DNA from: an uncultured cyanobacterium
Lineage (GTDB): Bacteria > Cyanobacteriota > Cyanobacteriia > Cyanobacteriales > Nostocaceae
Length of the DNA stretch: 64,000 nucleotides
Assembly: GCA_963706595.1 (NCBI GenBank)
Contig: OY970166.1
Span: 4,448,001 to 4,512,000, forward strand
Reading direction: 5' to 3'
Shown: piece by piece, positions 3,021 to 62,581 of the stretch
How the letters are laid out: each line of letters opens with the position of its first letter
Numbering within the stretch: the stretch's first letter is position 1
Notes under the pieces: model-generated
Told to the model about the DNA's origin: nothing
Database searches by the model: none
The model's input: the letters and a program-made list of their open reading frames with translations, nothing else
Translations under genes and position numbers: made by a program

Positions 3021-3026
3021 TGATTA

Positions 3027-3055: not shown

Positions 3056-3081
3056 GACACCAGATTTGATAAAAAATTTTT

Positions 3082-3162: not shown

Positions 3163-3290
3163 CTCACGCCACAGCCACAGCCACCACGCGAAAACCAACA
3201 GTGTTGTCACGAGTCGCGCGCGCGAGAGGATCGCGATTGGCAGAACGGCAAGCACTAGCGAGGAGGATCCAACTACCGCCACGCAGCAGC
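3163..3290 (-). repeat. DGR variable repeat (VR1), at the 3' end of the FGE-domain gene
   Basis: Encodes LLRGGSWILLASACRSANRDPLARATRDNTVGFRVVAVAVA* and differs from the TR almost only at TR adenines. Confidence 0.93.
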
Positions 3291-6235
3291 CGATAATCAT
3301 TATCATTCCCATTTAGCCAAGCACTTCCGTCTGTGGGCGCTGCCTCGTAATTTTCGTTATATATATCTTGGCACCATTCCCATATATTACCATGCATATC
3401 GTACAAACCGAAAGAGTTTGGCAAAAAATTTCCGACATCTGTTGTTTGTCTACGACTTTCACCTTTTGGGGCTGAGGCGTAGGGAAAGTTACCGTCGTAG
3501 TTAACTAAATCTGTGGTTATGGTTTCACCAAAAGAGAAGGGTGTGGTTGTTCCCGCACGACAAGCATATTCCCATTCAGCCTCGCTGGGTAGCCTGTATT
3601 TGCGTCCTGTACTTTGACTCAATTTTTCACAAAATTCTACAGCATCATCCCAAGTCACTTGTTCTACAGGTCGTTTATCACCTTTGAAATTAGCAGGATT
3701 TGTCCCCATAATTGCTTGATACTGCGCCTGGGTAACTGGATATTTCCCCATGAAGAAGGCAGGAACATTAACCAGATGCTGGGGACTTTCACTATCGAAT
3801 CTTTCTGCTTCCTCTGGTGGTGAACCCATCAAAAAAGAACCGCCAGAAATCGCCACCATTTGCAGAGTTACGCCATTACCTACATTTTCTACAAACTGGT
3901 CTGCTGTGCGGTTGTCTCTGGCAACAATATTTCCCTGTGCATTGACTGCTACGATTTTAAATTCAAAAAAAGTCTGTAAAAAAAGAGAATCATAATTAGG
4001 TATATTATAATTCCGACTAGGATTTTGGGTAATTTGATGTGTTACCACTGATGTCAGTAAACCCACACCTCCCCAACTAAGCCAAGTTAAAAATTTCCTG
4101 CGGCTGATTATCGGGGAAATAGAATTATTCGATTTAACAAAACTCGGCTGGTGAATTGATGGCTGAGTCACTATTCCCAACTTTCGTAATTTTTTCTGTC
4201 TTTGGAGTGAGCGACTAAAATCATCTGATACTTTCATGGTAAGTACAGATTGTTTTGTCATAAAGCCGAGAAAAAGATAATCCCGTAATAGACTATCTTG
4301 AGAAGCTGGTTTAGATAATAAAGAACGGATGGAATTAGCTAATTTGGTTAAAAAACTAGGAGCTTGTGTTGCTATTTCTAACTGTAATTTGCTGAACGCG
4401 GAACCTAACCCCCTAGCCCCCTTCCCTACCAGGGAAGGGGGAACATTCAAAGCCTCTCCCCTTGTAGGGTAGAGTTTTGGAGAGGGGTTTTCCTGATCCT
4501 GTGGAAAGTCAGAACCTTGAACAGCCGTATTTAATAAATCTTCTAGCGCATTACGAATAATCTGCTGTTGTTCTGGGGTGAGTGTTGTCATCAGGTAAAC
4601 ACGCAACCAGTCTGGCATATAACCAGAACGCAGCCACGGTAAACGAGCCAAATCAGTCAAGGAACACACTTCTAATAGAGATTTTCCTGACTCTGTGGTG
4701 AGAACGTTACCCAGATAAATAGTAATATTCCAATGCAATTCCGGAAAAACCGCACAAGCACTCAACCAATAAAAACTATCCTGTCCAAGATATTTCTCCA
4801 GCGACTCCAGCATGAGATTAATCTGCTCAGATGGGGGAGGATTCCGTTCTATCCAGAGATAAGGTTGTGTCCGTAATGAATCTGGTAGAGGTATTGGCGT
4901 TTTTTCCGCCAGAAAATAAGTTGCTACACCCTGGCGTAGTCTTTGACTTAGCACCTGTAAGCCTTTAAGTGTTGCGGGTAAAATAATAAACTGTTGTGCA
5001 AGTTCTAATTCCTGATATCTCCAGTTTTCTACAGGAGTGGGTGTTAGAAATGCCCGGTTTTCCCAGTCTGTCAATTGATTTACCCAAGGTTCTAATTCAC
5101 CACTAATAGAGCTAAAAAAGTTATCTGTATCGGAGATAATAATTAGACAATGCTGACTGTATTTTGATGTAATTTCTCTGAGTCTAAGTGGGAAGCTTCC
5201 TGGCTGATGGGGAAAACACATTCTTGGGTCATCATCGAAGAAATAGATAGTAGTAAATACGCCTTCATCTTGTAAGCGCTCAATTATTTCTTCTACAAAT
5301 TTAGCTTGATGATCTCGATAGCTGGTGCGGTTAACCAGAAATAGATACTCAGGGAGAATTTGATAAGTACGATAAACTGGAGTTAGCCATCCGCCTCGGC
5401 TGAGAGTTGCATTAATAGTTTTATTGACATCAAGTTCATGAGATGGAATCTGAATTCTATATCTTAAACTCTGGGCAATTTGGCGCAAGACAATATGAGA
5501 AACTAATTTATCTTCACAGCCAGCAATAGAAATTTTGTTTAATTCGGGTTGTTTTGTTGTACTATAACGTTGCAAAAACAGATTAGCACGCCATTGCGAT
5601 CTCAAAATGAGAAATGCAACTGAGATAGTTAGATAAAGTAGTAAAATTTGCCAATTTAAAGGTAAAGTTTCCGGAGGATCTGTTTTTGTAATTTCTCCTC
5701 TGGGAGGCACTTGTGGAAGTGGTCCCGTTGCTGGTGGGGGTAATACTGGGGTTGTTGTTTCTCCTGTTGGTCGTGGTTGTCTGAAAGACCTCTTCTCTAT
5801 GGGGGATGGGAATAAGATAATATATACAAAACATAGAAGAAAAATAGTAATTAAAGTTAGCAGTCTGAGTTGCTGCATCCCATAGGAGACAGAGGGTATT
5901 TTTTCTGGTTCGACTGGATGTGGTAGAGTTTCTAGGGTTGCTTTTTCTGTTAAGAAATTAGTTCGGCTAGATAACTGAACCCATCTGTCAAAACGTTGTG
6001 GAAATTCTTCCTGCTCAATGGGTGAACTACACAAAATTGGCCCTAACAAATTTCTCAGATTCTCTGGACTATCCAATGTTGTACCCCGATCAATCAACAT
6101 CAAGATTAAATTTTGGGCTGCAATATACTGAGATATGCCAATTTTGTAACCTGCTGCTCTTAGTTCATCGATGAACTCGATCAAATCATCAGGATTTAGC
6201 CAGTTTAGATTGTTTTTGTCTGTTCCTGTATCCAC
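3164..6235 (-). CDS. DGR target protein: vWA-like region, transmembrane segments and C-terminal FGE-sulfatase (CLec-fold) domain
   Basis: FGE motifs FLMGS, YPVTQAQY, RLPSEAEWEYACRAG, PNSFGLYDMHGNIWEWC, RGGSW...GFRVV. The segment ELDVNKTINAT...PEYLFLVNR is typical of MoxR-partner vWA proteins. Three hydrophobic stretches. Confidence 0.85.
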   Translation of the reverse strand: MDTGTDKNNLNWLNPDDLIEFIDELRAAGYKIGISQYIAAQNLILMLIDRGTTLDSPENLRNLLGPILCSSPIEQEEFPQRFDRWVQLSSRTNFLTEKATLETLPHPVEPEKIPSVSYGMQQLRLLTLITIFLLCFVYIILFPSPIEKRSFRQPRPTGETTTPVLPPPATGPLPQVPPRGEITKTDPPETLPLNWQILLLYLTISVAFLILRSQWRANLFLQRYSTTKQPELNKISIAGCEDKLVSHIVLRQIAQSLRYRIQIPSHELDVNKTINATLSRGGWLTPVYRTYQILPEYLFLVNRTSYRDHQAKFVEEIIERLQDEGVFTTIYFFDDDPRMCFPHQPGSFPLRLREITSKYSQHCLIIISDTDNFFSSISGELEPWVNQLTDWENRAFLTPTPVENWRYQELELAQQFIILPATLKGLQVLSQRLRQGVATYFLAEKTPIPLPDSLRTQPYLWIERNPPPSEQINLMLESLEKYLGQDSFYWLSACAVFPELHWNITIYLGNVLTTESGKSLLEVCSLTDLARLPWLRSGYMPDWLRVYLMTTLTPEQQQIIRNALEDLLNTAVQGSDFPQDQENPSPKLYPTRGEALNVPPSLVGKGARGLGSAFSKLQLEIATQAPSFLTKLANSIRSLLSKPASQDSLLRDYLFLGFMTKQSVLTMKVSDDFSRSLQRQKKLRKLGIVTQPSIHQPSFVKSNNSISPIISRRKFLTWLSWGGVGLLTSVVTHQITQNPSRNYNIPNYDSLFLQTFFEFKIVAVNAQGNIVARDNRTADQFVENVGNGVTLQMVAISGGSFLMGSPPEEAERFDSESPQHLVNVPAFFMGKYPVTQAQYQAIMGTNPANFKGDKRPVEQVTWDDAVEFCEKLSQSTGRKYRLPSEAEWEYACRAGTTTPFSFGETITTDLVNYDGNFPYASAPKGESRRQTTDVGNFLPNSFGLYDMHGNIWEWCQDIYNENYEAAPTDGSAWLNGNDNDYRLLRGGSWILLASACRSANRDPLARATRDNTVGFRVVAVAVA
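4392..4512. repeat. GC-rich cyanobacterial palindromic repeat element inserted in frame in the CDS
   Basis: GAACCTAACCCCCTAGCCCCCTTCCCTACCAGGGAAGGGGG...CCTCTCCCC...GGAGAGGGG. The same start (GAACCTAACCCC..CCCCTTCCC) occurs intergenically at 63241. Boundaries are approximate. Confidence 0.65.
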
Positions 6236-7209
6236 TGTTCTACAATTTTTTTAGCTTTTTCTTGATCATCAGCAGTTTTAATTAAGCTACTCAAAGTACC
6301 AAAAACTACTTCGGGTTGCAGTAAAGGATTTTCTGATGGACTATGAAACTTTCGTAAAATTATTAGCCAACCCAATAATTCAGCCGTTGCGGGTTTTTTC
6401 CTCAAACCACTTTGGGGGGAACGTAACCTGTAAAATAAGTTAAGGGCTGCTTGCAAAAATGGACTACTACTACCAGCATTAATATTGAAACGATTAGCGA
6501 CAATCTCAGCCAGTCGCTCAATTTTGGGAAAAGGAACGTTGTAATAAATGCAACGCCTGAGAAAAGCATCAGGTAAATCTTTTTCAGAATTGCTGGTAAT
6601 AATTATAATTGGTTGTAATTCTGGTTCGGCGGCAATTTTTTCATTTCCTAACTCTGGAATCCGAAAATACATTAACTCCAATTCGTTGAGTAAATCATTG
6701 GCGAAATCACGAGGTGCTTTATCAATTTCATCAATTAAAACTACTGAACGTGTTTTTTGAGAATGTCGAGTTTCTAATGACAATAAATCTTTAACTTCAT
6801 CTGGATTTTTAGTGTGTAAAATTGCTGTTCCTAAAGCTTGAAAAGTGATGTAATCTAAAAATTTAGTTGAATCAACCCCACTTTGCACATCTTGGAATCG
6901 CTTTAAGGCATCATAAGTATAGAATAAGTCACGAGCAACGCTAGTGGACTTAGTTTCAAACTTTAACGGCTGTTCCAGTCCAAGTTCCCAAGCCAGACTG
7001 TAAGCTAGTTGAGTTTTACCGGTTCCTGGTTCGCCGGTCACAAGTAGGGGTTGTCCTAATAACAGGGCTACATTACACGCATCTTTCAAGCCTGAATCTG
7101 CAATATAATTCTTTGGCTGGAGTAATTGAGAACGGGGAGAAGTTGGCACTTTTACTGGTAAATCCAATTGTTTGCGAGTTCCATCACCTGAGTAAAAGGG
7201 GTAATTCAT
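6205..7209 (-). CDS. MoxR-family AAA+ ATPase
   Basis: Walker A GEPGTGKT, Walker B VVLIDEIDKA, TSNSEKDLPDAFLRRC, KKPATAELLGW; overlaps both neighbouring genes. Confidence 0.9.
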   Translation of the reverse strand: MNYPFYSGDGTRKQLDLPVKVPTSPRSQLLQPKNYIADSGLKDACNVALLLGQPLLVTGEPGTGKTQLAYSLAWELGLEQPLKFETKSTSVARDLFYTYDALKRFQDVQSGVDSTKFLDYITFQALGTAILHTKNPDEVKDLLSLETRHSQKTRSVVLIDEIDKAPRDFANDLLNELELMYFRIPELGNEKIAAEPELQPIIIITSNSEKDLPDAFLRRCIYYNVPFPKIERLAEIVANRFNINAGSSSPFLQAALNLFYRLRSPQSGLRKKPATAELLGWLIILRKFHSPSENPLLQPEVVFGTLSSLIKTADDQEKAKKIVEQWIQEQTKTI

Positions 7210-8319
7210 GCTGATTCATCCTGTAGGAGGGGTTTGACTAATTCAACTAATTTTTCAGCTAAATCATGCATGGGAATCGTATCAGAGTATGTTTGTTCTT
7301 CCCAAGATTCAAACATCTCTCCAACTCTTTGAATTAATGGTTCAATCATGGCTTCTCCCACTAGCTTTCTAGTATCTTCACTACGTACCCAATTTTCCAC
7401 TTCGCCCTGATTTATTCCTTCTAATTCTGGCAGAACGATTACAGAGAGAGGTTGAAAATGATTAAAATTTGAGTTAGCTAATTTTTCGAGATACTGGCGA
7501 ACTCTTTTATTTATCTGCTGACATCGATATTGTTTAGAAAAAACGCGTGAAAAACTGAATATCCACTTTATCCAGAGTTTTTTGGCAGATTTGTTGCGTT
7601 TGTTTTTATATTTAATCGATATGTAAATAATTAATTTTTGACTGATTACTGTTTCATGTAAATGATTACAAAATTCCAAGAGTTTATTCAAAATTTCAAA
7701 TTCTTGTTTTTGCAAATCTTCTGTAAGTAAAGTGGTATAAAGTATAATTGGTTCTGGATAATTGTTTAAATAATCGGTGATTTTTTCCAAAGAGTAGAAA
7801 CTATTTCCCAAAACACCCTTTGTTAGACTTTTATATAACTCATTTCGTAGTTGATGCAAATTTTTTAATTTTGAAGGACATTCCAGTTGATATGTTGTCT
7901 TACTAATTGATTGGTGTGAAAGTATCTCTAGCCATTTAGGGAGAGCAAAGGTTTGTATGCGTTCTAAAAAGTTGTGATGACATTGGGATTCATCTCCATG
8001 AACAATGCAAACTAAATGACCAGGAGAATCTTGCTTGAGAAATTTCAGAAATGTTTCACCTAGTTGTGATTCCTGTTCTTTCCGGTTGGTTAAATAGGGT
8101 AGGAGTGGTGGAAGTTCTTTTTTAAATGGAGTCGGGGGTTTTTGGAAACTGCTTGACCCACTTTGATGAAAGGTAACATTTTTGGACGTGTTGGAAATTT
8201 AGAGCCTGTCCATTATCCAATTGACCAATACTCTGCCCAAAATTTTGACCTACTTCCTGCTGAATTTCATTCTTTGACTGGGGTGGTTGAGGTTCTCCCT
8301 GGTTTGGTTCTTGAGTCAT
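7206..8319 (-). CDS. iSTAND-like protein with N-terminal Q/N/G-rich motif; one single-base frameshift at about 8180
   Basis: The frame of ORF 7206..7859 stays open up to 8198 (NVTFHQSGSS...LLPYLTNRKEQ...LVCIVHGDESQCHHNFLERI, a degenerate P-loop). Removing one A from the A5 run at 8179-8183 joins it to the ORF that starts at 8319, giving about 370 aa. Confidence 0.7.
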
Positions 8320-8362
8320 TTTTTCGCAAACTTATGGCATCACTTCGTATTAGACTAATTGA

Positions 8363-8809
8363 CTAAAGTGTGACATTTCCATCTACACTACCGATGCTAC
8401 CAATGTTTTTAGCTTGGCTATTCTGCATCTGTCCAATCATTTGTCCTTCAACTGTGCCGGCTGTTTGCTGAATTTGAACGCCACCTTTATCAACTCCATC
8501 GTTATCTTGAAGAATTTTGGCAATGATATCTGCAAGTCCTTGATCTTTTTTAAAGAGTGTTTCTAACTCTTCTTGAAGTGCGGCTTTCCAAACTTCACTA
8601 TCTGGTTTTTCTGCTAACTTTGTGGCGGCGATGTTGGCTGCTGCTTCTGCTTCGACTGGAGGATATAATTTTTTCCAAATTGCGGTGGCTTTATCCCAAG
8701 TGTCTTGACCAAGCTTGGTCGCTGCTGCACTTAATGCCGGCTCTCCAACTTTTTTTAACAGAAAGGGCAGACATGGAGCTAGAAAAGTTGTCAAAATTGC
8801 TACATCCAT
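8363..8809 (-). CDS. Small helical protein (Bell/HeLo-like) with C-terminal Q/N/G-rich motif
   Basis: N-terminal hydrophobic helix (ILTTFLAPCLPFLLKK), helical core (KLGQDTWDKATAIWKKL...LQEELETLF) and the tail IQQTAGTVEGQMIGQMQNSQAKNIGSIGSVDGNVTL. Confidence 0.7.
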   Translation of the reverse strand: MDVAILTTFLAPCLPFLLKKVGEPALSAAATKLGQDTWDKATAIWKKLYPPVEAEAAANIAATKLAEKPDSEVWKAALQEELETLFKKDQGLADIIAKILQDNDGVDKGGVQIQQTAGTVEGQMIGQMQNSQAKNIGSIGSVDGNVTL

Positions 8810-8966
8810 TTATTTAAATTCTGATATTTTGCAAGTAACTTGATGTAACTCATAAATACCACAGCTTCTTATGGGAAAACAAGCCCAAATCCTGCATTTT
8901 AGGGATTGACGACTTGATGGGGATATTTAGCCTCTGGTAGAGTTTATAACTTTTTTGTAAATTATC

Positions 8967-51605: not shown

Positions 51606-51680
51606 GACTTTCAGCACTCAGTCAAAAACATTTGTAAGAGTGCAAATTTTTGCACCCTTACCCATTAGGTTGTAGTGCTA

Positions 51681-52196
51681 TTACTTACGCACCACGACTA
51701 AAGTCCCAGTTGAAGCCCAGTTATACAGTTGACGAGCTTGGGGAACTGGCAAATTTGTACAACCACGGCTAACTGGAGTCCCAAAATTGTTATGCCAGTA
51801 AGCACCATGAATGGCATAGCCGCCATGATAATACATAGCATAGGGGACATCAGGAATATCGTAGCCCCTGCCTCGCATTCGGTTAACACGATGCTTCGAT
51901 TTAATTCGATAAGTACCTGTAGGAGTGGGGGTAGAACGCTTTCCTGTGGAAACTCGGAATGAATACACGAGTTTCTTACCTTCCCAGGCGCGTAGACGTT
52001 GCTGGGATAAGCTAATTTCAATCCGGCGAGGTTTAGAGTTGCGTTGCGCTATGGTGAAACTATTGTTGGGCGGTGAGGCGTTCACCATAGCAGAGTTTGA
52101 GTTACCTGTGGTTGATGGTGGACAGGAAACCAAAGTAGCGATCGTCAATACTACACCTGTGCAGAAAGTTCCTGTTGAACGTATCCACCTTTGCAT
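51681..52196 (-). CDS. L,D-transpeptidase (YkuD family)
   Basis: [36 protein letters not shown]. Confidence 0.9.
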
Positions 52197-52256
52197 ATTG
52201 CATTACCTTATATATTTGGTTTGCTAGTTTCGGCAAAAATGAGCTTCTTCTACCGT

Positions 52257-53761
52257 CTGGAGTTTAGACTAAATAGCCGAATTCAAAGGAAAAAATAAGG
52301 GGTGTGATTGAACACAGTCCCCCTATTAGCAGAAACTGAGAGCAGAACTACCAACTCTCATCTGCCAATATGAAATGTGCCAAACTAAAAGAATTCCGTC
52401 AAGCCGCGTACAACCACTTAGGTAGAGCGCATGACGTAACTTTTGAACTAATGGATGCAATATTGCTGACTCGTAACGCTTACAGTTTGGCAGATTTATC
52501 GCTATCGCCAGTATTTAGACGCAAGTGGCCAAGTATTTATGAGGCATTACAAGATAGCAGACCACAGCGACAAAAGTTGATGCAGTTATACATCAAACAG
52601 GTGACAACGCAGGAACGTCTGTTGTTAGTAGGTGACCATACGGCCTGGTCGCGCCCGGACGCGGTAACCCTACAGGAAAGGACAATTGAACATAGCAGTG
52701 TCACAGTAGCGGGAAACAAACCAATTACCATTGGTCACGGATATAGCACCATTGCTTGGATACCAGAAGATTCGGGTAGTTGGGCGTTACCCTTGAGACA
52801 TGAGCGAATTACGAGTTGGGAAAACCCGATACAGAAGGCAACTTGGCAACTACAACAAGTGTGTGAAAATTTACCAACTAGACCAATTTCGGTTTGGGAC
52901 AGTGAGTATGGCTGCGCCCCTTTTCTGTTGAAGACGGCCAACATCAAAGCAGACATTCTTGTCCGTTTGCGTTCAAATCTTTGTTTATGGAATGCACCGC
53001 CACCATATTCTGGAAAGGGAAGACCCAGAAAGCACGGTGAGAAATTTAAACTGAATGAATCCTCTACATGGAACGAAGTCACTCAAAGTTTAGAGGTGAA
53101 CCATCCCAAGCTAGGAAGAGTCAAGGTGAGGTTATGGTCAAATTTACATTTCCGTAAAACTGCTACACGCCCCATGTCTCTTATCAGGGTTGAACGTCTA
53201 GATGAGCAAGGCAATTTGAAGGTATCAAAACCTTTGTGGTTGGCTTGGGTTGGGGAACAAATGCCGACCTTAGAAAAAGTTTGGCAACTTTACTTGCGTC
53301 GCTTTACTGTTGAACATTGGTATCGTTTTTTAAAGCAACGCCTACACTGGACATTGCCCAAGCTTAGTACGCCTAAGCAATGTGACCGTTGGAGTGACCT
53401 TATGCCTCTGATGACTTGGGAATTATGGTTGGCTCGTGATAACGTTATTGACAACCCCCTACCTTGGCAGAAGTCATTAGACAAAATGACCCCTGGAATG
53501 GTTGCCCAGGCGATGGGGAGTATTTTTGCAGTGATTGGTACTCCTGCCCGTTCACCCAAACCTCGTGGAAAGTCTCCAGGCTGGAAGACCGGACAACCAC
53601 GCCAACGTAGAATTCGCTATCCCATAGTCAAAAAGACTACAACCAAGCCCCGCAAAAAGCAGCCAGAACCTGTTTAGGGTTGTAGATTTTCATGCCAGAA
53701 GCCTGTTTCTTTTCAACTCAGCGTTGCTGGGTCGTTTCTTGTTGCTTAGTCTAAACTCCAG
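52257..53761 (+). mobile_element. Complete insertion sequence (1505 bp, IS701-like DDE transposase)
   Basis: Perfect 16-bp TIRs CTGGAGTTTAGACTAA / TTAGTCTAAACTCCAG and a 6-bp target duplication TACCGT (52251-52256, 53762-53767). Confidence 0.93.
52370..53677 (+). CDS. DDE transposase
   Basis: GDHT, WDSEYG, YLRRFTVEHWYRFLKQ, GRPRKHG; lies inside the TIRs. Confidence 0.92.
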   Translation: MKCAKLKEFRQAAYNHLGRAHDVTFELMDAILLTRNAYSLADLSLSPVFRRKWPSIYEALQDSRPQRQKLMQLYIKQVTTQERLLLVGDHTAWSRPDAVTLQERTIEHSSVTVAGNKPITIGHGYSTIAWIPEDSGSWALPLRHERITSWENPIQKATWQLQQVCENLPTRPISVWDSEYGCAPFLLKTANIKADILVRLRSNLCLWNAPPPYSGKGRPRKHGEKFKLNESSTWNEVTQSLEVNHPKLGRVKVRLWSNLHFRKTATRPMSLIRVERLDEQGNLKVSKPLWLAWVGEQMPTLEKVWQLYLRRFTVEHWYRFLKQRLHWTLPKLSTPKQCDRWSDLMPLMTWELWLARDNVIDNPLPWQKSLDKMTPGMVAQAMGSIFAVIGTPARSPKPRGKSPGWKTGQPRQRRIRYPIVKKTTTKPRKKQPEPV

Positions 53762-54386
53762 TACCGTGATTAGTTGCGTCTATTGAAAATGCCAATCATC
53801 AGGTGTTGAACTTGGGGAGATTTTCCAACACCTTTTCGCTGAACTGTATTGAAGTGTGAACATAATTCGTAGTTAAGAACCCACAGATAAAGTCGATGGT
53901 TTGACATCAAGATGGCACTTTATTGTGGTTATGTCTCTTAAATTACAAATTATTCGGTCAGGATTTACGCGAGATTGCTTTCAGGCAAACAATATAAGTT
54001 GCCTCTTCTATTTTTATTTTCAGGTTTGCTTAGATTGATTCCGGAAGTTTTCTGGCTAAATACCTCAAATGTCTTGATTTCTGGTTATTTAGTGCGAAAT
54101 TACATCTGAGTCAGCACACAGGAACTGTTTAGATAAAAGTTTAGATTTGTTTAAGCGAACTACTTTCGTAATTATACTGGTACTGCTATATTAAATTTAG
54201 AACCCTGTTTTGGACATTGTTAGTTGGAGAGACGCGATAAATCGCCGTCTCTACAGAAAATATATCCGTCAATTAATTTTTGACACAATACTAGACTAAT
54301 GACAATACACATTAGTATGCCAAATTAACTAAAGAAATGCTTTCATTTAGTTTCCGCTTTGTCAGAATAAACATTGTAATAAATTT

Positions 54387-54569
54387 ATGGCTAAATCCGA
54401 TCCCGCAAAATTAAAAAATGTATCATTTAGTCTTCCGTTTGGCATTGGTTCTGTGGAGTGGGAAGCCGACCCAACAGAATGTAGAGCCGCTTGGTTACTT
54501 TACGTTGAATTAGTAACTCGCATTGCTGTTCAACGTTTAGAAATGGTAATTGCTGGAGTGAAGGAGTAA
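54387..54569 (+). pseudogene. Probable truncated gene fragment
   Basis: 60-aa ORF (SLPFGIGSVEW...AAWLLYVELVTRIAVQ) that looks like the N-terminus of a longer protein and ends 3 nt before the TIR start. Confidence 0.45.
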
Positions 54570-54572
54570 CCG

Positions 54573-55333
54573 ATGGAAAAGTTTGATGTTTTTCTTTGTC
54601 ACAATACTAAAGATAAGTCTGCGGTTATCGAAGTTGCCGAACAGCTAAAGCAATGCGGAATTGTACCCTGGTTGGATATTTGGCATTTACCCCCTGGTTT
54701 TCCTTGGCAACCTATACTAGAACAGCAGATAAACCAGATTGGAGCAGCAGCAGTTTTTGTGGGGGGATCAGGAATTGCCCTTGGCAGATTCAAGAAATCG
54801 ATGCATTTCTACGAGAATTTGTGAAGCGGCAATGTCCGGTTATTCCGGTACTTTTACCGGATGCTCCAACAGAACCAAAATTGCCTCCATTTCTCCAGGG
54901 TTTAACGTGGGTTGATTTCCGTTTAGAGTATCCTGAACCGATGGGACAGTTGACGTGGGGTATAACTGGACAGAAGCCACAGGGAAACTTACAGGTGGAT
55001 GATAAAAAGCCAGGAGAAGTATCGACAGAGAAATTTCTTGAAAATACAAAATCTCTGCCTAAACCTATTAGATGGAATGATCAAAAAAGACAAGAATTAA
55101 TTAAGATTGTCGAGAACGTATTTGAAGAAGAAGAATTAAAGACTATATGTTTGAATAATCGAGAAATATTACATGGAAATCCTTATAGTAAAATTCAAGG
55201 AAATACAATTAGTAACAGATTGAATTATTTAGTTGATTATTTAATTAGAAAAAATTTGATTCAATCTTTTCTAGAAATACTTATTAAAGAAAGCGAATAT
55301 TTTGCTTCTTTATTAGAATTTTTACACGGATAA
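54573..55333 (+). CDS. TIR-domain effector with C-terminal EAD-like adaptor domain; frameshift at about 54777
   Basis: FDVFLCHN..DK, PWLD, AAVFVGGSGI/(G)PWQIQEI, VIPVLLP, WVDFR. One missing base in GGAATTGCCCTTGG splits the gene into two ORFs. Confidence 0.8.
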
Positions 55334-55569
55334 GTAAGTTTTCAGGAAAGCTTATAAGTTTACCATTGATTTTTACAAAATATGGAATTCAGAGATAACC
55401 AAAGACAAGAATTAATTAAAATTATCGAGAACGAATTTGAAGAAGAAGAATTAAAAACAATATGTTTGAATAATACAGAAAAATTACATGGAAATCCTTA
55501 TAATCAAATTCAAGGAAATACAGTTAGTAGTAGATTAAATTATTTAGTTGATTATTTAATTAGAAAAAA
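55086..55569 (+). repeat. 169-bp direct repeat (55086-55254 and 55401-55569) encoding a shared ~55-aa domain
   Basis: RQELIKIVENVFEEEELKTICLNN...RLNYLVDYLIRK versus RQELIKIIENEFEEEELKTICLNN...RLNYLVDYLIRK; 47/55 identical by manual count. Confidence 0.9.
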
Positions 55570-56908
55570 GCTAGTAGATAATTTTTTAGAGTTATGTCTT
55601 AAAGACCCAGCTAATCAAAAAACTGAACTAAATAAATTTTATTCACAAAGATTAAGATTAAGATTAAAAAAAATATTTCATAAGTATAATTTTCAGATTT
55701 TAATTAATCTTTTAGAGAAATTTAAGGAAGATAGATATGTAATTAGTTCTTACAATAATTATTTAGAAAACAATGATAGCCCAAAAGAAAAAATAACATT
55801 ATTTGATATATCACAACTAATTGATGATTTATTGATGTTGATGTGTTCCAATTCTTACGAAGAAAATCATATTTCTGATAACTCTCATGAATCTTGTTAT
55901 TTACTAGATTTCGTAGAAAAGTTTTTGTGTGAAATTGTATATATTCAAAATATTAAAGAGGATTTACAAAAATGGATTAGAACAAATTGTCCAGAAGTGA
56001 AATTTCCTAATGAGATAAAAAGTCAAGATTTAAATAATATGAATATTGCTAATTATCTTTTTTTTGTCATAGAACCAAAGACTGGAAATAATAACAAGAG
56101 AGAGTTTTTTATCAAAGCTCAATTTGCACAATTTGCAAATAATAAGACTCAGGAAAAAATCAGAGAATTTCCTATTGAGTTCAACACAAAAAAAGCACCT
56201 GAAACTTATGCGGAAAAACAAATCATTGACTTTGTATATCAAAGCATTCAAGCAATGACAGAAAAGCTTAAACTAGAAGGAATTGAATTATCTAGCTTAC
56301 CAATTATAGAATTATTTGTACCTATCAGTATTCTAGGCACAGAATTTGATGTTAAAAAAATTACTGGAGACTTTGATACAAAAATGCCTATTGGTCAGTT
56401 ATATCCATTAATTGTGCGCTCTTATGAGAGATTTTCTAAAGATAAAAATGATAGATTAAACATTGTGTGGCAAGAAAAATGGACATCGTTACAAGATTTT
56501 ATTAATAATGCTCATAATACTCAAGAATTTATAAACAACGTTAACAGTAATAAGCCTTGTATTTCTAATCTAACTGCTGACCCTTTCCCGAATTCAAGAA
56601 ACAGGCGTAAATTGTTTGAGCGCATTTTGTCTGAAGGTTTTCCTTTATGCTTATGGACTAGATACACAGAAACTAATCAAATTGATAATATTCACCAATA
56701 TTTTCAACTTATCTTAAACATAGATTCTCATCCTTTTCCTGATTTTTGTAAATTATATAAAATCTTGAGAAATATTCATGATATTCGCAAAGAATACATG
56801 AAAGAAAAAGACGATTTTGGTTATAAATTAGGAGTATTATTTGACCATTATAAAATACCAACAAAATCTAGTCAACTAATTTCACCTAATACAGCAATGA
56901 AGGTTTAG
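55382..56908 (+). CDS. VMAP-like (vWA-MoxR-associated) protein with N-terminal EAD-like domain
   Basis: YLFFVIEP, IIELFVP..L, IGQLYPLIVRSYER, WQEKW, GFPLCLWTR, LGVLFD; directly upstream of MoxR and very AT-rich. Confidence 0.75.
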   Translation: MEFRDNQRQELIKIIENEFEEEELKTICLNNTEKLHGNPYNQIQGNTVSSRLNYLVDYLIRKKLVDNFLELCLKDPANQKTELNKFYSQRLRLRLKKIFHKYNFQILINLLEKFKEDRYVISSYNNYLENNDSPKEKITLFDISQLIDDLLMLMCSNSYEENHISDNSHESCYLLDFVEKFLCEIVYIQNIKEDLQKWIRTNCPEVKFPNEIKSQDLNNMNIANYLFFVIEPKTGNNNKREFFIKAQFAQFANNKTQEKIREFPIEFNTKKAPETYAEKQIIDFVYQSIQAMTEKLKLEGIELSSLPIIELFVPISILGTEFDVKKITGDFDTKMPIGQLYPLIVRSYERFSKDKNDRLNIVWQEKWTSLQDFINNAHNTQEFINNVNSNKPCISNLTADPFPNSRNRRKLFERILSEGFPLCLWTRYTETNQIDNIHQYFQLILNIDSHPFPDFCKLYKILRNIHDIRKEYMKEKDDFGYKLGVLFDHYKIPTKSSQLISPNTAMKV

Positions 56909-56957
56909 AAATCTATATTGTAGTAATTAAATTATATATGAACACAAGGAGGAAACA

Positions 56958-58121
56958 ATGACTAAAAATAAACCAAAAAATGATTCAGAAAACCACAAAG
57001 ATTGGTATTTATTTTATGGCGATGGCAAAACTCATGTTAAAAAGATTGATGAACTTCCACCATCACCTCCTTGGCGAAAATTTTTAGATATTAAAAAAGA
57101 CTTAGAACTAGACAAAGAAATTAAAGAACAATGGGGAGAAATTCAAAAATTAGCAATCTCTGATGAAAATAAACGAGGTCGAGAAAAGGGTGAAAAATTT
57201 CGTGTTTCTAGTCAAGCAACAAAAGCAGATGATGACGAGTATACAAATAATACTAATATAACAGTATTAGATGCGGTAAATGCGGCGCTATATTTGCGAC
57301 GACCTCTTTTGGTTACAGGAAATCCCGGATCTGGAAAAACATCTTTAGCTTATGCGATCGCTCATGAATTACAATTAGGTTCTGTATTAACTTGGGCAAT
57401 TACTTCTCGTTCTACATTACAGGATGGATTGTATGATTATGATGCGATCGCACGACTCCAAGATTATCAGCTAAATAAAGACAACCTAGAGCAGAAACAA
57501 TCTTTTGATATTGGACAATATATCACATTGGGTCCAGTTGGTACAGCCTTTTTGCCATCTCTTCATCCTAGAGTATTATTAATTGATGAAATTGATAAAA
57601 GTGATATCAATTTACCTAACGATTTATTACATTTATTTGAAGAAGGTAAATTTGCCATACCTGAATTAGTCCGTTGGGCAGATACTTCTAAAATTGAAGA
57701 ATCTAAAATTGAAGAATCTAAAACTGTAAAAGTTCGTACAGAAGATTCAAATATTAAAGCTGCAATTAAAGCAGGTAGAGTAAATTGTTCAGAATTTCCC
57801 ATTATTATTATGACCAGTAATGGTGAACGAGATTTTCCTCCTGCATTTGTACGTCGGTGTCTGCGGGTAAAAATGCCAGATCCTGATCAACAATCTTTAA
57901 CAAACATAATTAAATCTCATTTTACTGATAGTAGTTTTACTCAGACTGAACAAAAAACTATTGAACTCATACAGACTTTTTTAGGGAAAGAAGAACAAGA
58001 ACGAGCAACAGATCAGTTATTAAATGCAGTTTACATGAGAAATAATCTTAGTTCTGAAGCTTTTACCCAAGATTTACAAGATTTATTGTTTAAAAGTTTA
58101 TCTGCGACTGATGAACAATAA
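56958..58121 (+). CDS. MoxR-family AAA+ ATPase (VMAP-type)
   Basis: PPWRKF, VNAALYLRRPLLVTGNPGSGKT, LLIDEIDKSDINLPNDLL, TSNGERDFPPAFVRRC, ATDQLLNA. Confidence 0.9.
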   Translation: MTKNKPKNDSENHKDWYLFYGDGKTHVKKIDELPPSPPWRKFLDIKKDLELDKEIKEQWGEIQKLAISDENKRGREKGEKFRVSSQATKADDDEYTNNTNITVLDAVNAALYLRRPLLVTGNPGSGKTSLAYAIAHELQLGSVLTWAITSRSTLQDGLYDYDAIARLQDYQLNKDNLEQKQSFDIGQYITLGPVGTAFLPSLHPRVLLIDEIDKSDINLPNDLLHLFEEGKFAIPELVRWADTSKIEESKIEESKTVKVRTEDSNIKAAIKAGRVNCSEFPIIIMTSNGERDFPPAFVRRCLRVKMPDPDQQSLTNIIKSHFTDSSFTQTEQKTIELIQTFLGKEEQERATDQLLNAVYMRNNLSSEAFTQDLQDLLFKSLSATDEQ

Positions 58122-58176
58122 AAACTTCAAAAATATTTTAGTCTGAGACAATTGGTATTGGAGTCAGCAAAAAACT

Positions 58177-61100
58177 ATGAGTGAGAAATTTGACCAGTTA
58201 ATTAGAGTATTACAAAAAGAATTAAAGCTAACTGGTACAGAAATCGCTGAAATTCTCTGGTTAGCACAACAAACCTCGTCTAATTTTTCTGGTCAAAAAA
58301 TACAAGATTCATCTAATGAACCAAAAACAATAATTAAAGATGTACCAGAAGATATACCAGCAGATATACCAAAAGACAGACCATTTGATATACTAAGTGA
58401 CCCACCCCCACCAACAAATGTTATTCAGCCAGAACCATCAACTGCTGTAGTTACTCCTCAAACCTCAAAGACATCTTCTGGTAGCGGTTTATCGATAAAG
58501 CTTCCTGACCGTTCATCTCTTCCTTATCCCTTAAAAATTGCTAAAGCATTACGTCCTTTAATTCAATATATTGCCTTTGGTAAAGCAGTTTTGTTAGATG
58601 AAAATGCCACAGTTGAACTGACTGCTGAATTAAATGGAGTCTGTATTCCTGTTCTGAAACCGCAACTAGAATTAAGATTTGATTTAACAGTAGTAATCGA
58701 TAAAAGTGATTCTATGATTTTTTGGCAAGGCATAACCAAAGAATTAGAACAAATTTTAAAACATTATGGTATTTTTCGCAATATTCAAACTTTTGGTATG
58801 GTGGAAAATGAGCAAGGAGATATTTGTTTAAGACAAGAAATAAGTAAAAAAAAATATTCAACTCAGAAATTAATTGATCCTAGTGGTCGTCGTTTAATCT
58901 TAGTAGTGAGTGATTGTGTTAGTGAAATTTGGCGCAATGGCAAAGCTTTTGATTTATTAAAAATTTGGGGTAAACATAATGTTGTAGCTATTGTGCAAAT
59001 GTTACCGGAAAAAATGTGGTTAAGAACTGGCTTGAGTTTAGGCACAATGGTACAGTTAGATAGTTTAATTCCCGCAGTATCCAATCGTAATTTATTCATT
59101 AAAGAAATTTTAATTTGGGATTATATTGATCAAAATTCTATCAAAGTTCCTGTTTTTAGCCTAACACAAAATTCTATAGAAACTTGGAGTCAAATGGTAA
59201 CAGGAAAAGGAAATATAGGTGCAGGTGGCTTTGCATTTTCTTCTCTTCAAGAGCAAGAGAAAGAAAGTGATGAGCAATCACAATTAACTATTGAAGAAAG
59301 AATACACAATTTTCGTGTGAGTTCCTCCCCCGTAGCCAGAAAATTAGCCAGTTTATTAGCGTCTGCACCTGTAATTAATTTGCCTGTAGTGCGTTTAATT
59401 CAAAATTTAATTAATAAAAATAATAATTTAGAACTTCCTCAAATTCATGTCATAGCTGAAGTATTTTTAGGTGGTATTTTAAAACCTACCAAAGAAATTA
59501 CACCAGATACTGACCCAGATTATGTTCAATATCATTTTATTGATGAAAAAATTAGAGATAGCTTACTTTCAGACAGTTCCAGAGTCAAGTCACGGGAAAT
59601 AATTGAAATTATTTCTGAATATTTTGCTAAACAACTGGGAAAAAATCTTAAAGAATTTTATGCGTTGTTAAAAAAGCCAGATGAGTTAGAAAAATTAAAA
59701 ACCGAGAAGAATGTTACAGATTTTGATGTCAAACATTTTGCCACTATCACTACCAAAGTTTTAAAACGTTTAGGAGGAGATTATGCTCGATTTGCTGAAG
59801 AAATTGAACAGTCTCAAAATCCACAACGAAAAGATACCGAACCTAGCATTTTTCAAGTATTTGCTGGAGAATACACTTGTTCAGTTAAATGGGGTGGAGA
59901 AACAGGTATTTGGCGTAAAGAATCACAACCAGAACATTTATGGATTTCTCCACAAGGTGAAGTGCAGTTTCGTTCTCGTTTTGGGTTGGCGGTAATTCAA
60001 AATTTAACTATAAATGAGCAAAGGTTATCTTGGAATTTTGGTGATAATCAAACTGCTGCTAGTATCACTTTTAAGGTAAATAGCGAAGATAGCTACTTTT
60101 GGGGAGATAATCAAACAGGAAAGTTATTTCAAGGATGGTTGAATTATCCCAAGGAAGGCAAAATAGATTTTCGAGGTAGGTTGGTAATTAGTGACCCATT
60201 ACAAGGTTTCCCTCCAATTCAAGATTTAACCTTTGAAGCCGTAAATATTTCTGTTGAGGATGATGATGTAAATTACAACCTGCAATCTTTTGAGTTTGAA
60301 GTTGCGCTCATCACAGGAATTAAAGAAGCTAATACAACTAATCCTATAGAAGTTGCTAATAATTTAGTATTTTCCCAGACAGAAAAACATTTGACTGAAG
60401 TTGAACAGCTAATTATACAAGAAACAATATCAGATAAAACTTATGAGCAAATCGCAGCATCATCAAATTGCTCTACAGAATACCTAAAAGAATTAGCATA
60501 TCGATTATGGGAAATTTTTTCAACAGCTTTGGGTGAAAAAGTTAATAAAAGAAATTTCAAGAATGTTATTCAACTGCAAGTAAATAATTCTCTAATAAAT
60601 ATTCGTCGTAGTCGTCAAACAGCCAATTATTTTATTGAAGAATTGAATGGTGTTCAACTAGAAATGGTGTCTATTCCTGAAGGCAATTTTACGATGGGGT
60701 CGCCAAAAGAGGAACCAGCGCGTTTTAGTGATGAAAGTCCTCAACACGAAGTAACTGTTCCAGCTTTCTTCATGGGCAAATACACAGTAACACAAGCACA
60801 GTGGCAAGCAGTGGCATATCTGCCGCAAGTTAACCGAGAACTAAAGCCTGACCCTTCTAAATTTAAGGGTGCAAATAAACCTGTAGAGCAAGTTTCTTGG
60901 TACGATGCAGTTGAATTTTGTCAGCGTCTTACTGCCCATACAAAAAGACAGTATCGCCTACCCAGCGAAGCAGAATGGGAATATGCCTGTCGTGCTGGAA
61001 CTACTAGCCCATTTCACTTTGGTGAGACAATCACATCAGAATTGGCTAACTATGATGCTACCTCCATTTATGGCAGGGGTGTAAAAGGAAGCTACAGAGA

Positions 61101-61422
61101 GGAGACTACACCTGTGGGCAGTTTTAAAGCAGCTAACAACTTTGGACTATACGATATGCACGGAAATGTATGGGAATTGTGTCTTGATGATTGGCATAGT
61201 AATTATGAAGGAGCGCCAGGAAATGGTAGTGCGTGGTTTGATGATAATAATAACCTTTCTCAAAAGCAAGGAAAAGCCTTACTGCGGGGCGGTTCCTGGG
61301 TCTACTCTCCTAAGTACTGCCGTTCTGCGTCTCGCAGCAACGATCTTAGGGCGGAGCGCGTCGATGTCAAATACAGTATCGGTTTTCGTGTTGTCTGTGC
61401 TGTTGGCAGGATTCTTCAGTAG
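58177..61422 (+). CDS. vWA-like (SAV_2336-type) protein with HTH and C-terminal FGE-sulfatase domain; probable DGR target
   Basis: EIAEILWLA, IAKALRPL, LDENATV, VVIDKSDSM, LILVVSDCVS..W, QMLPEKMW; HTH-like LTEVEQL...TYEQIA...LGEKVNKRNFK; full FGE motif set. Confidence 0.85.
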   Translation: MSEKFDQLIRVLQKELKLTGTEIAEILWLAQQTSSNFSGQKIQDSSNEPKTIIKDVPEDIPADIPKDRPFDILSDPPPPTNVIQPEPSTAVVTPQTSKTSSGSGLSIKLPDRSSLPYPLKIAKALRPLIQYIAFGKAVLLDENATVELTAELNGVCIPVLKPQLELRFDLTVVIDKSDSMIFWQGITKELEQILKHYGIFRNIQTFGMVENEQGDICLRQEISKKKYSTQKLIDPSGRRLILVVSDCVSEIWRNGKAFDLLKIWGKHNVVAIVQMLPEKMWLRTGLSLGTMVQLDSLIPAVSNRNLFIKEILIWDYIDQNSIKVPVFSLTQNSIETWSQMVTGKGNIGAGGFAFSSLQEQEKESDEQSQLTIEERIHNFRVSSSPVARKLASLLASAPVINLPVVRLIQNLINKNNNLELPQIHVIAEVFLGGILKPTKEITPDTDPDYVQYHFIDEKIRDSLLSDSSRVKSREIIEIISEYFAKQLGKNLKEFYALLKKPDELEKLKTEKNVTDFDVKHFATITTKVLKRLGGDYARFAEEIEQSQNPQRKDTEPSIFQVFAGEYTCSVKWGGETGIWRKESQPEHLWISPQGEVQFRSRFGLAVIQNLTINEQRLSWNFGDNQTAASITFKVNSEDSYFWGDNQTGKLFQGWLNYPKEGKIDFRGRLVISDPLQGFPPIQDLTFEAVNISVEDDDVNYNLQSFEFEVALITGIKEANTTNPIEVANNLVFSQTEKHLTEVEQLIIQETISDKTYEQIAASSNCSTEYLKELAYRLWEIFSTALGEKVNKRNFKNVIQLQVNNSLINIRRSRQTANYFIEELNGVQLEMVSIPEGNFTMGSPKEEPARFSDESPQHEVTVPAFFMGKYTVTQAQWQAVAYLPQVNRELKPDPSKFKGANKPVEQVSWYDAVEFCQRLTAHTKRQYRLPSEAEWEYACRAGTTSPFHFGETITSELANYDATSIYGRGVKGSYREETTPVGSFKAANNFGLYDMHGNVWELCLDDWHSNYEGAPGNGSAWFDDNNNLSQKQGKALLRGGSWVYSPKYCRSASRSNDLRAERVDVKYSIGFRVVCAVGRILQ
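61282..61422 (+). repeat. VR-like region 2
   Basis: 141 nt, collinear with 62423-62563; nonsynonymous differences cluster in NNY codons. Confidence 0.65.
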
Positions 61423-61501
61423 CCCTTTATACTTTTTCTCTTTTGTCCTTTACCCTTCTTTTTTTCCTTTTTTAGCGGAGCGATCTTTTTTTAAAAAATA
61501 C

Positions 61502-61717: not shown

Positions 61718-62563
61718 ATGTCCAAAATAGTTATAAACAGAACGCAAAAGACAGCCCAATACTATGTAGAAGATTTGGGCGATGGAATTGGGTTAGATAT
61801 ACTGCTGATTCCTGGGGGTAGTTTTATGATGGGTTCACCAGAGAATGAACTGGAACGCAGGGAATCAGAAAGCCCCCAGCATTTAGTAAATATTCAACAA
61901 TGTTGCATGGGTAAATATCCAATCACTCAACCACAGTGGAAAGCTGTTGCAGCGTTAGCAAAGGTGAATAAAGACCTAGACGCTGACCCCTCTAAATTTA
62001 AGGGTGTAAATAGACCTGTAGATCGAGTCTCTTGGTACGATGCAGTTGAATTTTGTCAGCGTCTTACTGCCTACACAAAAAGGGAGTACCGTCTACCTAG
62101 TGAAGCAGAATGGGAATATGCCTGTCGTGCTGGAACTACTAGCCCATTTCACTTTGGTGAGACAATCACATCAGAATTGGCTAACTATAGAGCTACTGAA
62201 ACTTATGGCAGGGGTGTAAAAGGAATTTATAGAAAGGAGACTACACCTGTGGGCAGTTTTAACGCAGCTAACAACTTTGGACTATACGATATGCACGGAA
62301 ATGTATGGGAATGGTGTCTTGATGATAGGCACGAAAACTATGAAGGAGCGCCAACAGATGGCAGAGCTTGGTTTAATGATAATAATAATGATAATATTTA
62401 CCAAAAAAAAGGAAGATCCTTACTGCGGGGCGGGTCCTGGTACGACAATCCTAGAGGCTGCCGTTCCGCGTCTCGCGGCAGTCTCACTAGGGCGGAGCGC
62501 GACAACCGCAACCACAGTTTTGGTTTTCGTGTTGTTTGCGCTGTTGGGAGGACTTTTAAGTAG
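61718..62563 (+). CDS. Stand-alone FGE-sulfatase (CLec-fold) domain protein; probable DGR target
   Basis: Close paralogue of the C-terminal domain of 58177..61422, sharing RLPSEAEWEYACRAGTTSPFHFGETITSELANY. Confidence 0.85.
   Translation: MSKIVINRTQKTAQYYVEDLGDGIGLDILLIPGGSFMMGSPENELERRESESPQHLVNIQQCCMGKYPITQPQWKAVAALAKVNKDLDADPSKFKGVNRPVDRVSWYDAVEFCQRLTAYTKREYRLPSEAEWEYACRAGTTSPFHFGETITSELANYRATETYGRGVKGIYRKETTPVGSFNAANNFGLYDMHGNVWEWCLDDRHENYEGAPTDGRAWFNDNNNDNIYQKKGRSLLRGGSWYDNPRGCRSASRGSLTRAERDNRNHSFGFRVVCAVGRTFK
62423..62563 (+). repeat. VR-like region 3
   Basis: Encodes LRGGSWYDNPRGCRSASRGSLTRAERDNRNHSFGFRVVCAVGRTFK*; retains AAT/AAC codons. Confidence 0.65.
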
Positions 62564-62581
62564 CCCTTTACACTTCTCCGG

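Follow-up and report, generated by a model that had tools for sequence, protein, structure and literature searches.

The 64,000-nucleotide (nt) stretch of DNA analyzed here, referred to as the window, is taken from contig OY970166.1 (positions 4,448,001 to 4,512,000) of assembly GCA_963706595.1, an uncultured cyanobacterium of the Nostocaceae. It contains a run of four genes, all on the plus strand and separated by intergenic gaps of 48, 49, and 55 nt, that encode, in order, a TIR protein ending in an effector-associated domain of family EAD6 (TIR-EAD6), a VMAP protein beginning with the same domain (EAD6-VMAP), a MoxR-type AAA+ ATPase, and a vWA-type protein with a lectin domain and an FGE-sulfatase (FGS) end. 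This order, which an initial annotation had proposed from the letters alone (TIR, adaptor gene, MoxR, and vWA-FGE), is borne out by the map of open reading frames (ORFs) and by profile searches. We assign the locus with high confidence to the published class of VMAP-MoxR-vWA “ternary” conflict systems, here in a cyanobacterium; such a system is predicted to act in anti-invader defense or in programmed death. The account developed below, in which class membership is combined with docking through EAD6 and activation of the TIR, is considered probable as a whole. The features of the locus are listed in Table 1.

Table 1. Features of the EAD6 locus and of the sequence adjoining it (positions are those of the window; aa, amino acids)
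Feature	Position	Strand	Remarks
TIR-EAD6 gene	54573..55333	+	TIR domain to ~54975, linker, EAD6 copy E; two frames in the assembly
EAD6 copy E (C-terminal adaptor of the TIR protein)	55067..55330	+	Pfam EAD6, residues 141-214 of the 226-aa ORF
Direct DNA repeat, copy 1	55079..55290	+	partner is 55394-55605
Direct DNA repeat, copy 2	55394..55605	+	partner is 55079-55290
VMAP core protein, 508 aa	55382..56908	+	EAD6 copy V (4-71), VMAP-M5 (80-217), VMAP-C (291-488)
MoxR-type AAA+ ATPase, 387 aa	56958..58121	+	Pfam AAA_5 4.9e-8, AAA 3.6e-7
vWA-type component, 1081 aa	58177..61422	+	N-terminal module with DxSxS strand, OAA-family lectin, C-terminal FGE-sulfatase (FGS, C-type-lectin fold)
Stand-alone FGS paralog, 281 aa	61718..62563	+	Pfam FGE-sulfatase 3.1e-47; adjoins the system, candidate member only
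60-aa relic of a ~165-aa gene	54387..54569	+	first ~53 and last ~8 codons left, ~320 nt between them deleted

The second gene encodes a plain VMAP, with Pfam matches to VMAP-M5 (7e-62, 207.8 bits) and VMAP-C (1.7e-16, 61.3 bits) against a cutoff of 27 for each. The relation to VMAP that had been proposed for it is therefore upheld, and the qualifier “VMAP-like” can be dropped. Both ATPase matches of the third gene are also above the cutoff (AAA_5, 33.5 bits against a cutoff of 22; AAA, 31.1 bits). AAA_5 is the Pfam family that includes MoxR-type ATPases, and these scores, together with the position of the gene in the locus, point to a MoxR-type protein.

The tail of the TIR protein recurs at the head of the VMAP protein. 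At the DNA level, the two direct repeats are 212 nt long and 85% identical, with 315 nt from start to start, and they contain a core of 169 nt (55086 to 55254 and 55401 to 55569) at 92% identity. The two ORFs share 53/75 residues (BLASTP E value, 1e-27), and a count on that alignment gives 47/56 identical residues in the core, which confirms the repeat described in the initial annotation (47/55 residues and 169 bp). This likeness greatly exceeds what chance would give. Both copies match Pfam EAD6 (PF19958), with 80.6 bits (1e-22) in the TIR tail and 71.9 bits (5.2e-20) in the VMAP head, at a gathering cutoff of 27; a weaker EAD7 match covers the same stretch (5e-5 and 4.4e-4, respectively). 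The adaptor had been thought to be a divergent or unnamed effector-associated domain (EAD). That it is an EAD holds, but it is neither divergent nor unnamed, since it lies well above the gathering score of a named family in both genes. These two matches are the only ones to EAD6 in the genome. The repeats are 105 codons apart (315 nt), and the two ORFs share a reading frame; a recombinational deletion between the repeats would yield an in-frame TIR-EAD6-VMAP fusion, a fused architecture that is also known for VMAPs.

EAD6 is present in 4/301 genomes of the order and forms 54 representative clusters among 1.84 billion proteins. Thirty-nine of these clusters were scanned against Pfam, with the 15 of ≤149 residues left out. 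Nineteen are VMAPs (type M5, M12, or M1), and one of these also has EAD1. In another 13, the EAD6 match is C-terminal on something other than a VMAP: CHAT (two clusters), trypsin (three), TIR (one), HTH (one), a cyclase-like domain without a Pfam name (two), an EAD1-containing protein (one), an EAD7 protein (one), a protein without any other domain (one), and a gene call of the window's own broken gene (one). The remaining seven carry EAD6 N-terminally on FGE, GUN4 (two clusters), EAD1-TIR, EAD1-TPR, or others.

Eleven loci were compared: the window, those of genomes G439, G284, G499, G531, G302, G217, and G136, and three metagenome contigs supplied by a metagenome scan. A search of the genome contigs with a single VMAP sequence found no related locus, and an alignment of two sequences found one. 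With a profile of the domain, 22 EAD6 copies are found in the 11 loci, one at the C terminus of an enzyme and one at the N terminus of a VMAP in each. The initial annotation had tied its reading to the occurrence of paired domains in homologous loci, and the pair is present in 11/11 of them. The enzyme is a TIR in the window and G439, a cyclase-like protein in five loci (L007, L043, L044, L022, and L021), and a CHAT peptidase in the other four (L042, L023, L008, and L009). In 10/10 loci of sufficient length, the AAA_5 gene follows the VMAP gene. FGS is present on the vWA-type protein in 9/10 loci, while the tenth (L023) has WD40 repeats in the part available; the domain inserted in this protein varies, being an OAA lectin in the window and G439 and GUN4 in L022. 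The proposed match of effector tail to core-subunit head is thus recovered by the profile searches, with the same adaptor on enzyme tail and VMAP head, followed by MoxR-type and vWA-type genes.

The N-terminal domain (~200 aa) of the cyclase-like proteins has no family in PADLOC, Pfam, or NCBIfam. It is labeled cyclase-like because 27/30 of its ESM Atlas hits are Guanylate_cyc clusters (score, 0.96). A profile of the cyclase-like EAD6 proteins, searched against PDB sequences, gave no informative match, the best (E value, 0.18) being on the EAD6 part. In 4/4 assessable loci (L007, L043, L044, and L022), a gene for a PycTM/2TM membrane effector lies just upstream of the cyclase-like gene. The Pfam PycTM matches range from 1.4e-7 to 4.7e-5, that of L022 being below the cutoff, and the PADLOC model for the 2TM effector gives 3.5e-37 for L007.

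The two copies within a locus resemble each other more than they resemble copies elsewhere. Over a core of 68 residues, in-locus identity is 59 to 90% (52/68 in the window), compared with a cross-locus mean of 44 to 47%. For 9/22 EAD6 domains, nothing matches better than the in-locus partner; 12 of the remaining 13 are closest to the copy of their own type in a very close sister locus, and the enzyme copy of L042 is the exception. Synonymous differences within pairs range from 0.02 to saturation, and that of the window is 0.29, against a cross-locus median of 0.48. Four-taxon sites, given as concerted versus orthologous, are strongly one-sided toward the concerted grouping in distant loci, namely, L007/L044 (59:0), L043/L044 (60:0), the window/L007 (37:0), and L007/L043 (22:1). 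Very close loci show orthology sites only (19 for L021/L022 and 49, plus 1 cross site, for L008/L009). The window and G439 form a mosaic, with 15/16 orthology sites in the flanks of the 204-nt core (its first 7 positions and its last 29) and all 7 nonorthology sites (3 concerted and 4 crossed) in the central ~170 nt (P of ~2e-5 by label shuffling). The cyclase-like genes are orthologous (51 to 72% identity), which excludes independent duplications as the source of the in-locus likeness. Because independent duplications cannot explain the in-locus grouping, the sequences indicate that the copies within a locus are kept alike by gene conversion.

Gene conversion needs similarity alone and requires no selection, so it is no proof that the likeness is selected for binding, which counts against a docking role. 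One could argue that the likeness is a by-product of recent duplication or recombination and has no part in docking, all the more as the pairs of L043, L007, and L044 hardly differ at synonymous sites (synonymous difference [pS], 0.02 to 0.10), as after recent copying. We consider this very unlikely. The pair is kept throughout the loci compared, which span three VMAP subtypes (M5 and M12, with M1 in the wider census) and three enzyme classes, and EAD6 is always found at a protein terminus. Furthermore, the old pairs of L008 and L009, in which synonymous sites are saturated, still share 59 to 62% of residues. The ratio of nonsynonymous to synonymous change (dN/dS) between the two copies in the window is 0.37, and by this measure, both look constrained.

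An AlphaFold2 model of EAD6 copy E (88 residues, from 11 sequences) has six helices and a mean predicted local distance difference test score (pLDDT) of 92.5. When the model was compared with 48,161 chains by VIA-align, 45 of the 50 top rows were titled CARD, DED, PYD, or death-domain proteins, with 71 to 87 of the 88 residues aligned (span, 1 to 88), a root mean square deviation of 2.3 to 4.0 Å, and Z values of 5.7 to 8.1, although these values fall in a range that the tool itself describes as usual for helical bundles. The bacterial death-like domain 8ss1 is among the matches (Z, 6.2). Foldseek, which the initial annotation had suggested for a comparison with death-like families, returned nothing from the PDB at an E value of ≤0.001, which limits the evidence for the fold; CARDs head its weak list, the best being the caspase-1 CARD (E value, 2.1). 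As modeled, EAD6 is a six-helix bundle of Death-like shape, a statement about shape and not proven homology.

In the assembly, the TIR domain is divided between two ORFs. The first (54573 to 54824) matches Pfam TIR_2 positions 1 to 59 (1.7e-11), and the second (54653 to 55333) matches positions 66 to 120 (5.7e-5) and contains EAD6. The sister genome G439, which belongs to the same genus and is syntenic over most of the window, has an intact TIR-EAD6 protein of 251 aa (TIR_2, 9e-22; EAD6, 5.6e-22). In an alignment made with this intact ortholog, the Glu of WQIQEI, which had been described as occupying the expected catalytic position, indeed falls on the W..xELD Glu of the solved bacterial TIR structures of PdTIR (3h16), AbTIR (7uwg/8g83), and TcpB (4lqc). 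We take this Glu to be the catalytic residue.

Several features of the locus weigh against a working system. A one-base frameshift near 54776 to 54778 interrupts the TIR gene, a single G being absent behind 54776; the site (GG to G) is not in a long homopolymer. One system gene reads as broken in each of two genomes, the TIR gene here and the VMAP gene in G439, where it is split into ORFs of 232 and 290 aa (L036 [G439:C1], 7412 to 8942) at the equivalent of window position 56066. The 165-aa partner gene beside the TIR gene is a deletion relic, and an insertion sequence transposase (DDE_5, 2.3e-21) lies 0.9 kb upstream of the system. Finally, the comparison of TIR-EAD6 with its G439 ortholog (54573 to 55317 versus L036, 9172 to 9927) gives 27 nonsynonymous and 5 synonymous changes, with a synonymous divergence (dS) of 0.033 and a dN/dS of 1.44, which would also be expected under relaxed constraint. 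Together, these points could describe a decaying remnant: the frameshift would be a genuine mutation that leaves the effector arm dead, and the other genes would survive by inertia or because they serve another purpose.

We regard such decay as unlikely. Five single-base frame breaks relative to G439 are found in the 64-kb window (near 39172, 46045, 46455, 54778, and 63797). They hit four genes that are intact in G439 (those for proteins of 1,189, 321, and 128 aa and TIR-EAD6), conserved genes included, and the genome is 94% complete, compared with 98 to 100% in 9/10 other genomes of the genus. Moreover, the extra G is present in contigs of 4/4 public runs that are 95 to 97% identical to window positions 54539 to 55317; two of the runs are DNA metagenomes and the others are RNA runs from two organisms, and their contigs come from relatives. 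The strain's own reads were not found, as no public run contained >16% of the sampled words. Because the G is present in G439 and all four runs, and in light of the five breaks and the completeness value, an assembly error is more likely than a true pseudogene. The break in the reading frame on which the initial annotation had based its repaired TIR is real in the assembly, but the TIR may need no repair, since the missing G is present in G439 and in the four runs. More generally, with this many single-base breaks and a completeness of 94%, a gene of this assembly should be called a pseudogene only with support from reads. The split in the G439 VMAP gene falls at a run of nine T's (eight in the window) and may reflect either an error of assembly or a switch prone to slippage. 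Also at odds with decay, the VMAP, MoxR, and vWA-FGS genes of the window are intact, with dN/dS values relative to G439 of 0.34 (MoxR) and 0.40 (vWA-FGS), and amino acid changes derived in the TIR are found in both lineages when judged by eye with the own-genome TIR paralog as the outgroup.

The neighbors of TIR-EAD6 differ from their G439 counterparts with dS values of 0.10 to 0.30 and dN/dS values of 0.11 to 0.40. The low dS and high dN/dS of TIR-EAD6 point to a recent exchange between lineages, combined with diversifying or relaxed evolution. In a contig from an RNA library of a relative (run X9, “organism B”), the TIR sequence (window positions 54539 to 54974) is joined to the MoxR region near 57150; the 30 letters after the junction stay in frame and are identical to the codons for ALAKSDENKR in the G439 MoxR gene. 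The contig has the appearance of a natural deletion product, with the TIR fused to the ATPase and EAD6 and VMAP lost, as seen in this one contig, which is possibly a chimera.

The sequence just upstream of the TIR gene suggests where the TIR came from. Residues 1 to 53 of the 60-aa ORF are 71 to 79% identical to ORFs of ~165 aa in 29/301 genomes of the order. The ~165-aa gene lies directly 5' of a TIR gene in L012 and L013, and in eight further genomes, the two DNA matches are separated by ~320 to 450 nt. The two matching blocks of the relic are 320 nt apart in G578:C103 and 5 nt apart in the window, so that relative to G578, ~320 nt is gone from the middle of the 165-aa gene. G439 lacks a further 309 nt (window positions 54224 to 54532), and its right-hand junction seems to be the same as that of the window, as judged from ~10 nt. 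A second copy of the TIR domain elsewhere in the genome is 87% identical and is fused to GUN4 (L037, 3213 to 4253; G000:C1, ~1.21 Mb). The probable source of the TIR module is a “165-aa gene plus TIR” cassette, from which it would have been moved next to an EAD6 already in place, and its former partner gene would have been decaying ever since.

This two-gene cassette is widespread (L012, 1501 to 2992; L013, 1501 to 2904; 29/301 genomes), with TIR-TIR or TIR-GUN4 as its TIR part, and may be a defense pair of its own; the 165-aa protein has no match to a Pfam, NCBIfam, or PADLOC family. GUN4 recurs in several contexts: on the TIR that is 87% identical in DNA, with EAD6-like heads (P0025 and P0052), and before FGS in the vWA protein of L022 (6043 to 9186). 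Farther upstream, ~2.5 kb between an ARD/cupin gene and the system (window positions 51609 to 54090) is missing from G439; this segment carries a gene for a YkuD L,D-transpeptidase (51681 to 52196, minus strand) and the DDE_5 transposase (52370 to 53677).

The fourth protein of the system matches NCBIfam SAV_2336_NTERM (3.5e-127) over residues 20 to 489, followed by Pfam matches to SBD (OAA-family lectin; 5e-9) and FGE-sulfatase (4.1e-52). A DxSxS motif can be read in its N-terminal module, and the two best profile-versus-PDB matches of this module are to the integrin alpha-1 I-domain on the DxSxS strand, although they are weak (E value, 0.39). An AlphaFold2 model of this part (490 aa, from nine sequences) is poor (pLDDT, 46.9) and includes, at residues 168 to 274, a beta-alpha-beta stretch; in a fold search with that poor model, the winged-helix-like part (366 to 490) dominates, and the vWA domain of TEM8 appears at rank 50 (Z, 5.8). 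Pfam vWA has no match in the protein even at an E value of ≤5. The vWA fold of this component is weakly supported, which is a further point against the assignments made here.

The stand-alone FGS gene that follows is 81% identical in DNA to positions 60733 to 61032. No separate ortholog of it was found in the G439 stretch, where the region aligns only to the FGS end of the vWA gene. The 3' ends of the FGS paralogs at 61150 to 61425, 62285 to 62566, and G000:C1:645823 to 646089 are 78 to 79% identical in DNA and, by eye, differ mostly after GGSW and around CRSA.R, presumably the usual variable positions of targets of diversity-generating retroelements (DGRs). A DGR-like cassette (an FGS target, an Avd-like ORF, and a 304-aa reverse transcriptase ORF) is found ~113 kb downstream, at about G000:C1:4623989 to 4626900. 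No template repeat was detected by blastn in 6.6 kb of this region, and blastn of the region against the FGS ends in the window gave no match above 71 to 77%. The 64-kb window itself contains no reverse transcriptase or template repeat. With no template repeat and no close match, the idea that the FGS domains of the window are current DGR targets was dropped as unsupported, not refuted. A first ternary system, without EAD6, is located at 2566 to 8943 of the window (vWA-FGS at 3164 to 6235, an AAA ATPase at 6205 to 7209, and neighbors); the syntenic G439 stretch has no counterpart, which indicates that it was inserted here or lost in G439.

Regarding function, we propose that the two EAD6 copies would bind each other in the manner of CARD-CARD or DED-DED pairs, thereby docking the TIR protein onto the VMAP. 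The sensor for a ligand derived from an invader may be the C-terminal part of the vWA protein, with its lectin and FGS domains, and the MoxR ATPase would remodel the vWA-VMAP complex. Clustering driven by EAD6 could then bring TIR domains together and switch on cleavage of NAD+, acting either through direct depletion of NAD+ or through production of a signal. We lean slightly toward accepting that docking and activation occur in this way; that the two EAD6 copies physically bind is presumed here, as it is in published work. Output most likely runs through the EAD6 branch, because the enzymes found on this branch are killers or makers of signals with an executioner of their own (PycTM), whereas FGS, lectin, GUN4, and WD40 domains are binders.

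Other observations do not favor this mechanism. Promoter-like sites are not enriched at the locus (30, versus 33.6 in shuffles), and terminator-like sites (2, versus 5.9 in shuffles) include none that closes the operon. Among the papers searched, no experiment on EAD6, on another EAD, or on any VMAP system was found. In addition, Kaur et al. (eLife 2020, PMC7159879) give the opposite direction in the text considered: there, FGS acts as effector, and the enzymes linked to EAD6 take the signaling role.

On that model, which was proposed together with the definition of the class (PMC7159879), the VMAP and the enzyme recruited through EAD6 would sense and relay, and the lectin and FGS of the vWA protein would be deployed as the effector. 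The variety of C-terminal domains on the vWA-type protein (OAA lectin, GUN4, WD40, or FGS alone) resembles that of effectors. However, FGS, lectin, and WD40 are binding domains without killing activity, whereas TIR, CHAT, and cyclase plus PycTM are typical outputs, and the text of Dore et al. (2023, 10.1101/2023.09.22.558884) takes a hypervariable FGS end to be the sensor, so that an output on the EAD6 side is in line with Dore et al. but not with Kaur et al. We consider the reverse direction quite unlikely.

The TIR bound through EAD6 might instead generate a signal, with a nucleotide of the cyclic ADP-ribose (cADPR) type activating an effector encoded elsewhere, much as the cyclase-EAD6 proteins are paired with PycTM. 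A separate membrane effector accompanies the EAD6-bound enzyme in every assessable cyclase-like locus, and AbTIR, which makes cADPR isomers, is among the closest solved TIRs by sequence. Kaur et al. (PMC7159879) place EAD6, in the text considered, among the adaptors that mainly recruit signaling components. However, no sensor or effector gene adjoins the TIR gene, upstream of which are the 165-aa relic in the window and 0.4 kb of noncoding DNA in G439, and no SIR2, SLOG, Macro, or SAVED domain was found among 23 ORFs of the window searched against Pfam (16 of them within 49 to 63 kb). On balance, we hold a signal acting on an effector encoded elsewhere to be rather unlikely for this locus.

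Beyond the docking of one TIR onto one VMAP, a tentative hypothesis, to which we give somewhat less than an even chance, is that EAD6 serves as a Death-fold “address tag.” Recurrent gene conversion would keep the copies within a locus matched and the system private to its own effector, and new enzymes would be plugged in by recombination just upstream of the resident EAD6. Here, this would have brought in a TIR with a scrap of its old partner gene from the “165-aa gene plus TIR” cassette; elsewhere, it would have been a Pycsar-like cyclase or a CHAT peptidase. If the match sets the specificity of pairing, this would be a bacterial counterpart of CARD-CARD specificity, upheld at the DNA level and not by coadaptation of diverging partners.

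Pycsar consists of a cyclase and PycTM, Thoeris links a TIR-made signal to an effector, and both are anti-phage systems. Like Pycsar, the sister loci pair a cyclase-like enzyme with a PycTM/2TM effector, and to judge from the alignment, the TIR described here shares the position of the active-site Glu with NAD+-cleaving bacterial TIRs. In contrast to both, the enzyme here would be tethered via EAD6 to a VMAP-MoxR-vWA machine and would not sense phage itself. No ThsA-type effector (SIR2 or Macro/SLOG) was found among the same window ORFs, and the PADLOC ThsB model does not match the window's TIR piece.

The closest relatives are the VMAP ternary systems (vWA-MoxR-VMAP) with EADs described by Kaur, Burroughs, Iyer, and Aravind (eLife 2020, PMC7159879). 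In the parts of that paper considered here, adjacent EAD copies are reported to be most alike, and EAD6 is described as all-alpha and distantly related to EAD1 and EAD7. The core trio of that class (VMAP, MoxR-type, and putative vWA genes) recurs in the locus, as do the FGS that the vWA component has in cyanobacteria, the EAD at the N terminus of the VMAP, and a second copy on the enzyme of the adjacent gene, and we see no structural difference from the class as set out there. In those parts of the paper, TIR-EAD6 is not named as an architecture, although the source data may list it. Since that 2020 publication, the class and its pairing rule have been known, as have the EAD6 family and the role assigned to it, and this locus is an ordinary member. 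What is added here is the gene conversion mosaic, the Death-like model of EAD6, and the PycTM neighbor of the cyclase-like EAD6 proteins. The DGR-diversified ternary sensors of Dore et al. (10.1101/2023.09.22.558884), as far as they are described in the portion considered, have in common with the window a MoxR ATPase, a vWA protein that ends in FGS (CLec), and two adjoining FGS genes, a long one and a short one that consists of FGS only; unlike them, the window lacks the reverse transcriptase and template repeat, and the DGR-like cassette is ~113 kb away.

A further parallel is with the bacterial Death-like domains bDLD1 to bDLD3 and the “EAD principle” of Kaur et al. (eLife 2021, PMC8195603). 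As presented in the text of that paper, in which EAD6 has no occurrence, these are likewise small alpha-helical adaptors at protein termini, with at least two copies per locus, that link a TIR, caspase, or trypsin to a core NTPase, and homotypic assembly is proposed for them, as in apoptosomes. EAD6 is connected to bDLD1 to bDLD3 by its predicted fold only (Z, 5.7 to 8.1) and not by sequence. The value of the locus is that of a clean test case, having exactly one EAD6 pair in the genome, three different enzymes on the same adaptor among its relatives, and an intact TIR-EAD6 in a sister genome. Together, the pair and its relatives with swapped effectors offer a testbed for homotypic binding of bacterial Death-like adaptors and for the in-locus match as a source of specificity.

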